Positions 2,920 through 3,693 of a stretch of DNA of 22,796 nt are shown here, one piece after another (within the stretch, counting starts at the first letter, position 1; the number at the start of each line of letters is the position of its first letter). Source of the DNA: a virus. The DNA lies in the UHGV virus genome UHGV-0317022. One strand, given 5' to 3'. The position numbers were made by a program, and so were the translations under genes. The notes under the pieces were generated by a model. It saw nothing but the letters and a program-made list of their open reading frames with translations, was not told where the DNA came from and did no database searches.

Positions 2920-3693
2920 TCAAAAATTAGGTGAGTAACGGACCGGGGACATAGCTCCTTTTTTTCTTAATTCATCTGGTATTTTTTTTCCAAGATAAAG
3001 ATTTGCTATTTCAGGTGGGGCTTCTCGACCTTCAAAACCATAGCGCGAACTTTGTGTTGCCTCAAAGTCAGGATCCTCGTCCCAGTATTTCAACGAAGGG
3101 AAATTTTCACGTGTTGATTTGAGCCATTTATCAGCAATGAAAACCCCTCGAACGATCCCCCTTACAGTAGCAAGAATGATTTCTGCTTGGCTGGCGCGAG
3201 AGACATTAATGCGCCAGCTAAATCGAACCGCATCATAAAGCTCTGAATCCTTTGCACTTCTGTTAACGGAAATCATTAATGCTTTATGATGAAATGTTAT
3301 GGTTTCGGGTTGATATGTTGCTATCAACTCTTTGACATGCGCGGCGCCGAATTCATTGCTGCCAGCACCATTCATGATATTCGTTAACCCAGGGTAGGCA
3401 TCAATAAGTGCAGCTTCAACTTCGTACGCCGTCTTTTCATCAGTCATTCCGTGTCGATGGATGACATGGATAACTTCAAGTCCTGCTAACCTTATTTCTC
3501 TAATTTGCTTTAGCTTGTTGCTCAGTAACTCGTCATCATCAGTCGCTGCCACTTCACCGCGCATATGGGCAAATACGCGGTTACCTTTGCCTTTCCCTAC
3601 ATAGAAGGTGCTTCCGTCCCTCGGATCAATCAATCGGTATACATACCAGCCAAGGTGTTCAATTACTCCAGAAGGAAACTCAGTAATATCCAT
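2920..3693 (-). CDS. GIY-YIG nuclease-domain protein (possible freestanding homing endonuclease or defense nuclease)
   Basis: N-terminal region [28 protein letters not shown] fits the GIY-(x10)-YIG motif with the following conserved Arg. The track ORF runs to 3744 but begins with a TTG; the first ATG (MDITEF...) is at 3693, which I take as the likely start. Confidence 0.7.

Follow-up and report, generated by a model that had tools for sequence, protein, structure and literature searches.

Does the GIY-YIG nuclease gene that follows the tail fibre assembly gene tfa in UHGV virus genome UHGV-0317022 encode a homing endonuclease, or a nuclease of a defence system? An earlier note on this DNA had left the choice between the two, and we addressed it by computational analysis of the whole stretch of 22,796 nucleotides (hereafter the window). 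The coding sequence is uninterrupted, with a G+C content of 43.5%, and its coordinates are collected in Table 1 with those of the associated features. The mechanical reading frame in the ORF list is longer (2920-3744, minus strand), opening with a TTG at 3744; the in-frame ATG at 3693 is the RefSeq start of an identical gene, and the crystallised constructs discussed below likewise begin MDIT. The gene lies where the earlier note had placed it, immediately after tfa on the opposite strand: the two are convergent, with a stop-to-stop gap of 69 bp that contains a terminator hairpin, and tfa is preceded by a tail fibre gene truncated by the left end of the window. The surrounding DNA is AT-rich, as had also been noted, since G+C across 2750-4500 is 38-44% against 45-57% for the tail fibre genes. 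In the upstream DNA a consensus scan shows neither a clear sigma-70 promoter nor a Shine-Dalgarno sequence; the hexamers of the weak candidate promoter listed in Table 1 agree with the consensus at 8 of 12 positions, which is under the scan threshold. The window gene has the same sequence as the one encoding RefSeq WP_000355482.1 in E. coli strain 035152, where it closes the right-hand end of a lambdoid prophage after, in order, the Q antiterminator, a lambda-family holin, terminase, J, Lom, Stf and Tfa. This identical locus confirms that the gene is, as described earlier, an accessory (moron) gene of a lambdoid prophage.

Table 1. Coordinates of the PD-T4-3/CMoRE gene and associated features in the window
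Feature	Position	Strand	Basis or remark
Tail fibre assembly gene tfa	2266-2850	+	Pfam Caudo_TAP, E = 4.6e-45
Intrinsic-terminator hairpin with U-run	2862-2900	minus	Between tfa and CMoRE; 3' boundary of the cassette
PD-T4-3/CMoRE coding sequence	2920-3693	minus	257 aa plus stop codon, ATG start
Codons 52-55 (DDDE), acidic run of the autoinhibitory lid loop	3529-3540	minus	Translation
'GIYxY-YIG' active-site codons (Y17, Y19, Y31)	3601-3645	minus	Read from the translation; roles by mutagenesis in PMC12923530
Upstream region, ~196 bp	3694-3889	minus	Accompanies the gene in every context examined
Candidate promoter, weak	-35 TTGTGA 3754-3749; 17-nt spacer; -10 TAATAT 3731-3726	minus	Hexamers read by eye
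Second hairpin copy	3884-3917	minus	Direct repeat, alignment, pattern search; upstream edge of the cassette in the lambdoid context
Third hairpin copy	5656-5689		After the HTH/ImmA module

Firstly, we compared the protein with profile collections. The PADLOC profile PDLC04031 for PD-T4-3 matches it with E = 7.6e-140 and 462.8 bits, residues 1-256 aligning with profile positions 1-255/256. Pfam recovers the N-terminal GIY-YIG domain that the earlier note had read in a protein of ~258 aa (257 by our count), and which it had proposed to check in this way: PF22945 (LEM-3-like GIY-YIG) covers residues 28-110 with 54.2 bits against a cut-off of 27 (E = 2.2e-14). Because this match is limited to the catalytic domain, and the protein lacks the ankyrin and LEM domains of its eukaryotic namesakes LEM-3/ANKLE1, the assignment denotes a class at the level of the fold and not of function. 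The Pfam search yields no domain besides GIY-YIG, the match to generic PF01541 falls under its threshold, and NCBIfam gives zero matches; PHROG 5356, to which no function is assigned, aligns with the protein end to end.

Secondly, we compared the protein with solved structures. PDB entries 9U75 and 9U8D, an E. coli O157:H7 'GIY-YIG domain-containing protein', align over residues 1-257 (phmmer E = 5.1e-171), and a direct count gives 250 identical residues of 257 (97.3%), that is, seven substitutions. Entries 9U7U and 9U7Z, from APEC O1, align over the same length with 38 differences (E = 1.6e-150, 85% identity). In these alignments the C-terminal half of the window protein pairs with the sensor domain of CMoRE. 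The earlier note had suggested that the C-terminal ~150 aa could be a DNA-binding or sensing domain, and it was probably right: crystallography of the O157:H7 protein, at 97% identity, shows this domain binding 5hmC.

Thirdly, we followed the residues of known function. Every residue named in the structural study (PMC12923530) is conserved in the window protein: Y17, Y19 and Y31, with the third tyrosine present in the sequence GWYVYRL...STFYVGKG; the acidic run 52-55, which is DDDE in the window and APEC O1 proteins and DDDD in that of O157:H7; and R80, V92, L96 and Y127. The beta1-beta2 region equals that of O157:H7. The substitutions relative to O157:H7 (T51A, E55D, Q169K, I172V, N197H, S200T and L201M, window residue first) are all conservative in our judgement, and none hits a residue named as functional; five of the seven (Q169, I172, N197, S200 and L201) fall in the sensing domain. 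In the genome of O157:H7 strain PA20 (L002) the gene specifies the crystallised protein residue for residue; compared with the window gene it has 22 synonymous and 7 non-synonymous codon differences, a ratio consistent with purifying selection. The gene is intact in five of five sampled genomes, so that the disruption in close relatives that the earlier note had named as evidence against it is not seen.

Judged by these matches, the window gene is PD-T4-3, renamed CMoRE, an E. coli prophage defence enzyme that has already been characterised, and we found no sequence-level evidence that contradicts this reading. No methyltransferase domain lies beside the gene among the neighbouring ORFs of the window (tfa, the DinI-like pseudogene, the HTH/ImmA pair, one ORF of no known family and the PD-T7-1-like ORF); the gene thus has the type IV arrangement, a nuclease without a cognate protective methyltransferase. 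The earlier note did not recognise the gene as known and mechanistically solved. Since it was obtained by functional selection in 2022 and its structure and biochemistry followed in 2026, the finding is correct but ordinary. RefSeq still names the protein by its domain alone, 'LEM-3-like GIY-YIG domain-containing protein', and the entry could now be renamed PD-T4-3/CMoRE. Strains with the gene should resist T-even phages, which is relevant to the choice of therapeutic phages.

PD-T4-3 came from a functional selection as a single-gene GIY-YIG system of E. coli ECOR68 (Vassallo et al. 2022, PMC9519451); the main text of that paper does not use the name and speaks just of 'a GIY-YIG nuclease'. 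Liu et al. (2026, Nat Commun, PMC12923530, the source of what follows in this paragraph) renamed it CMoRE and derived its mechanism from the O157:H7 and APEC O1 proteins. CMoRE protects ~10^5-fold against T2, T4 and T6. In vitro it binds and cleaves 5hmC and 5ghmC DNA and neither C nor 5mC DNA, with the pattern CN11/N9G and products bearing 2-nt 3' overhangs; it has no strict sequence specificity and spares unmodified host DNA. The N-terminal GIY-YIG domain carries the 'GIYxY-YIG' motif formed by the three tyrosines, and the C-terminal domain has a new fold that binds 5hmC near Y127 and for which no homologue is detectable by sequence or structure. The protein assembles as a tetramer; the double substitution V92S/L96S abolishes oligomerisation and weakens defence severely. 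Clones of the orthologues under their native promoters are active, that of APEC O1 being weak. Autoinhibition is exerted by an acidic lid loop of 15 residues between alpha2 and alpha3, in which four acidic residues stand in a row, and the 4A mutant of the acidic run is hyperactive, toxic and cleaves ordinary DNA.

The existence of this loop and the toxicity of its mutation speak for another explanation, an abortive-infection effector, in which the nuclease is restrained until infection and then degrades host and phage DNA, so that the cell dies; this mode is shared by many single-gene prophage nucleases. The published experiments argue against it (PMC12923530). With the orthologue, cultures show normal growth at an MOI above 1; the defence is therefore direct and non-abortive, and the read depth of host DNA is unchanged under infection. 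Ordinary DNA is not cut in trans when 5hmC DNA or 5hm-dCTP is supplied. The ECOR68 original is likewise non-abortive, as PMC12923530 relates, citing Vassallo et al. 2022. We consider abortive infection very improbable for the window gene. A third explanation, that the protein is a DNA-repair or structure-specific nuclease (UvrC-, Slx1- or LEM-3/ANKLE1-like), cellular or of the prophage, with no part in immunity, draws on the top Pfam match, which the RefSeq name follows, on UvrC being the nearest structural neighbour of the catalytic domain (PMC12923530) and on the DinI-like pseudogene that adjoins the window gene. This likeness is restricted to the catalytic fold, and Pfam finds no ankyrin, LEM, UvrC or Slx1 partner domains. 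The gene is moreover patchy prophage cargo, carried by 15% of E. coli genomes, and restriction of phages by the enzyme has been shown directly by experiment (PMC12923530; PMC12366544; bioRxiv 10.1101/2024.12.20.629700). In the clinical isolate NILS69, deletion of PD-T4-3 abolishes resistance to T-even phages and renders the strain sensitive to LF73_P1 and LF73_P3, and expression of the NILS69 gene in K-12 blocks four Tevenvirinae phages (bioRxiv 10.1101/2024.12.20.629700). A Capnocytophaga homologue, 48% identical, degrades modified T4 DNA and not T4-GT7 DNA in vitro, and at high concentration degrades Mu DNA too (PMC12366544). A role in repair is, in our estimate, even more improbable than abortive infection.

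For PD-T4-3/CMoRE itself, the steps of the mechanism were shown with the 97%-identical O157:H7 orthologue and extend to the window protein by near-identity. The window protein would form a tetramer, as a dimer of dimers, whose C-terminal domains would bind 5-hydroxymethylcytosine or glucosyl-hydroxymethylcytosine in DNA and not C or 5mC. One dimer would read two modified cytosines ~21 bp apart (CN11/N9G), and the GIY-YIG domain, with Y17, Y19, Y31, a catalytic Arg and Glu, and Mg2+ or Mn2+, would cut both strands to leave 2-nt 3' overhangs. The acidic lid loop (DDDE 52-55) would repel unmodified host DNA and so prevent self-cleavage. Incoming T-even genomes would be destroyed directly and non-abortively, which would protect the lysogen and therefore the prophage too. 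We infer that the window allele cleaves 5hmC/5ghmC DNA and defends against T-even phages. The explanation as a whole, a PD-T4-3/CMoRE gene acting as its O157:H7 orthologue does and carried on a self-contained moron cassette, is in our view nearly certain.

We then consider the distribution of the gene. Of 5426 complete E. coli genomes, 838 contain a copy with at least 95% nucleotide identity; nearly all of the copies are chromosomal, and 823 of the 838 matches cover at least 80% of the gene. Besides the end of the lambdoid prophage of strain 035152, the gene follows the invertase gene pinE in the e14-like prophage of SEC470 and in a defective prophage of O157:H7 PA20, which combines lambda-type regulatory genes with an e14-like invertible tail-fibre segment. 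In strain CE10 it adjoins a pair consisting of a Dcm-type methyltransferase and a type II restriction gene near ssrA, and in another context it lies beside a lipase gene where prophage and chromosome meet. The position that follows pinE directly holds CMoRE in two of the loci compared (L002 and L005 6001-6774) and mcrA in K-12 e14 (L006 5347-6180); therefore two unrelated type IV restriction nucleases alternate at one slot. Read across the genomes compared, this spread over contexts is the pattern of defence cargo at prophage ends, not that of a homing element.

In a phage collection, megablast with the gene gave no matches, and tblastn found homologues at 39-45% identity in jumbo phages and no closer ones. 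These full-length homologues occur in jumbo phages of 250-280 kb infecting Serratia, Pectobacterium, Pantoea and Klebsiella (records H68-H82), for example at 6406-7161 of Serratia phage Moabite (NC_048792.1), and are labelled endonuclease or putative homing nuclease. They may reflect the use of a CMoRE-like enzyme by one phage against another.

We analysed how far the DNA shared with other copies of the gene extends. In four other prophage contexts (L002-L005) the homology starts exactly at 2862, the first position of the terminator hairpin, and ends at 3889, 3902 or 3983, that is, ~200-290 bp upstream of the ATG. The upstream region accompanies the gene and so presumably holds its promoter. 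From the limits of the shared block, the mobile unit is therefore the upstream region, the coding sequence and the terminator, a classic 'moron'. The terminator was missed by the consensus scan because its stem is bulged, and it was found by folding: its RNA has a folding energy of -26.1 kcal/mol (z = -4.26), which no shuffled sequence out of 200 equalled. The same 34-nt hairpin (consensus CCGCAGACACGTCGTATGCAAGAACGTGCTGCGG) punctuates the cargo after tfa three times, at the positions given in Table 1; a match to its pattern appeared in none of 100 shuffles, so that no copy is expected by chance. The second copy is likely the terminator of the DinI-like pseudogene. In strain E21845/O/A (L008 3501-3541) the site is empty, with the order tfa-hairpin-dinI, and in strain EC09 (L007 2025-3257) an unrelated gene of 410 aa, for which we found no Pfam and no PADLOC match, stands between two hairpin copies in the equivalent slot. 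The empty site and the alternative cargo suggest that cassettes are exchanged at the hairpins, and we infer recombination between the hairpins as the route. This cassette structure, with its empty site and alternative cargo, is the sole addition made here to published knowledge, and the way in which the cassette travels may be undescribed so far. A joint reading, to which we give a low though appreciable probability, would go further: the hairpins would act as homology 'joints' through which defence cargo is swapped at the tfa/dinI end of lambdoid prophages, or else the substitutions in the sensing domain would shift the range of modifications recognised. If the hairpins are such joints, the unannotated 410-aa gene of EC09 becomes a candidate new defence gene.

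The presence of the cassette at the tfa/dinI junction of some related prophages and its absence from others could also be read as homing. A freestanding GIY-YIG homing endonuclease, like T4 Seg or I-TevI, would cleave a specific site in related prophages without the gene and be copied there by repair. The window protein does have the GIY-YIG domain, PHROG 314 'homing endonuclease' matches it weakly (E = 0.0022, nuclease domain only), and one of the jumbo-phage homologues bears the label 'putative homing nuclease'. In contrast, a Pfam search with E up to 1 turns up none of the homing-type modules NUMOD, IENR1, zinc finger and HTH; crystal structures of the 97%-identical protein show its C-terminal domain to be a sensor of 5hmC; and that orthologue, which is not strictly sequence-specific, spares host DNA that is unmodified (PMC12923530). 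The earlier note had proposed to look for homologues inserted at the same site, as homing predicts; the neighbours are instead unrelated across prophages (tfa, pinE, acyltransferase, HTH pseudogene), and the slot that is empty in E21845/O/A holds another gene in EC09. Presence and absence, the alternative gene and the several contexts appear to fit cargo exchange better than homing, to which we assign a very small probability, like that of abortive infection. Of the two options in the earlier note, a defence nuclease has stood, as PD-T4-3/CMoRE, and homing has not, given the lack of DNA-binding modules and the variable cargo contexts.

The DNA beyond the PD-T4-3/CMoRE cassette contains further genes of interest. 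Between the cassette and the HTH/ImmA pair lies the DinI-like pseudogene (~3986-4119, minus strand), to which RefSeq, in annotating a 99%-identical region in strain 035152, assigns a frameshift and a truncation. The pair itself (4322-5211, plus strand) consists of an Xre-type HTH gene and an ImmA/IrrE metallopeptidase gene 8 bp apart and resembles the CapH/CapP defence regulators (PADLOC capH E = 3.6e-10, capP E = 6e-11); no CBASS system adjoins it. Regulation of CMoRE by this divergent pair as a general feature was rejected, the flank being common to just 13 of the 838 carriers; in three of these 13 the match is annotated as extending to the HTH gene. The pair may control the downstream ORF at 5906-6376 and the PD-T7-1-like gene. 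That ORF (plus strand, 156 aa, G+C ~38%), which is preceded by the third hairpin and followed by the PD-T7-1-like gene, gave no Pfam and no PADLOC match and is conserved together with the PD-T7-1-like gene in several genomes. The latter (6481-7899, plus strand, 472 aa) matches PADLOC PD-T7-1 with E = 2.8e-69, and PD-T7-5 more weakly, and has no Pfam domain; it is intact in the window, whereas the closest genomes, strain 035152 for example, have the region split by an IS3 element. It is a second Vassallo-type defence gene, ~3 kb from PD-T4-3/CMoRE. A P4-like satellite abuts the prophage (8416-9630, 14445-16250 and 20321-22289, plus strand), and encodes a large primase-like protein and an integrase in which an Arm-DNA-bind_3 domain is recognised; its distal end, where G+C is 31-35%, carries PARIS, composed of AriA (ATPase, E = 2.6e-43) and AriB (DUF4435, E = 3.6e-22). 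No tRNA genes were found in the whole window. The tail-fibre end of the prophage is a small defence island: CMoRE, the PD-T7-1-like gene close to it, and PARIS in the neighbouring satellite.

Among known systems, McrA (EcoKMcrA) is a type IV restriction enzyme in which a reader of modified cytosine is fused to a nuclease; the nuclease is of the HNH type, the reader domain is a different one, and the targets are 5mC and 5hmC but not glucosylated hmC. Like CMoRE, McrA is borne by a prophage, the cryptic e14 of K-12, and the slot after pinE is common to both, whereas no sequence similarity between them was detected and the genes have opposite orientations. The PvuRts1I/AbaSI family and GmrSD/BrxU share with CMoRE the modification-dependent cleavage of T-even-type DNA. 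PvuRts1I acts on two modified cytosines ~20-22 bp apart in a symmetric arrangement and leaves 2-nt 3' overhangs. PvuRts1I/AbaSI enzymes combine a Vsr/PD-(D/E)XK-like nuclease with an SRA-like reader, and GmrSD/BrxU have DUF262/HNH domains and NTPase activity. The nuclease folds of both groups differ from that of CMoRE. PvuRts1I recognises 5hmC and 5ghmC (PMC12923530). The homing endonucleases I-TevI and SegA-G share the GIY-YIG catalytic fold and are, like the window gene, freestanding phage genes; unlike the window protein, they have neither a third tyrosine nor an acidic lid, they possess modular sequence-specific DNA-binding domains, which the window protein lacks, and their targets are sequences, not base modifications. 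With PD-T4-3/CMoRE, the window protein has in common its length, the two-domain architecture, the motif, the acidic loop, the residues of the tetramer interface and Y127, and both are single-gene systems on a prophage; they differ in location, the window copy lying after tfa in a lambdoid prophage and the O157:H7 copy after pinE in a defective one.
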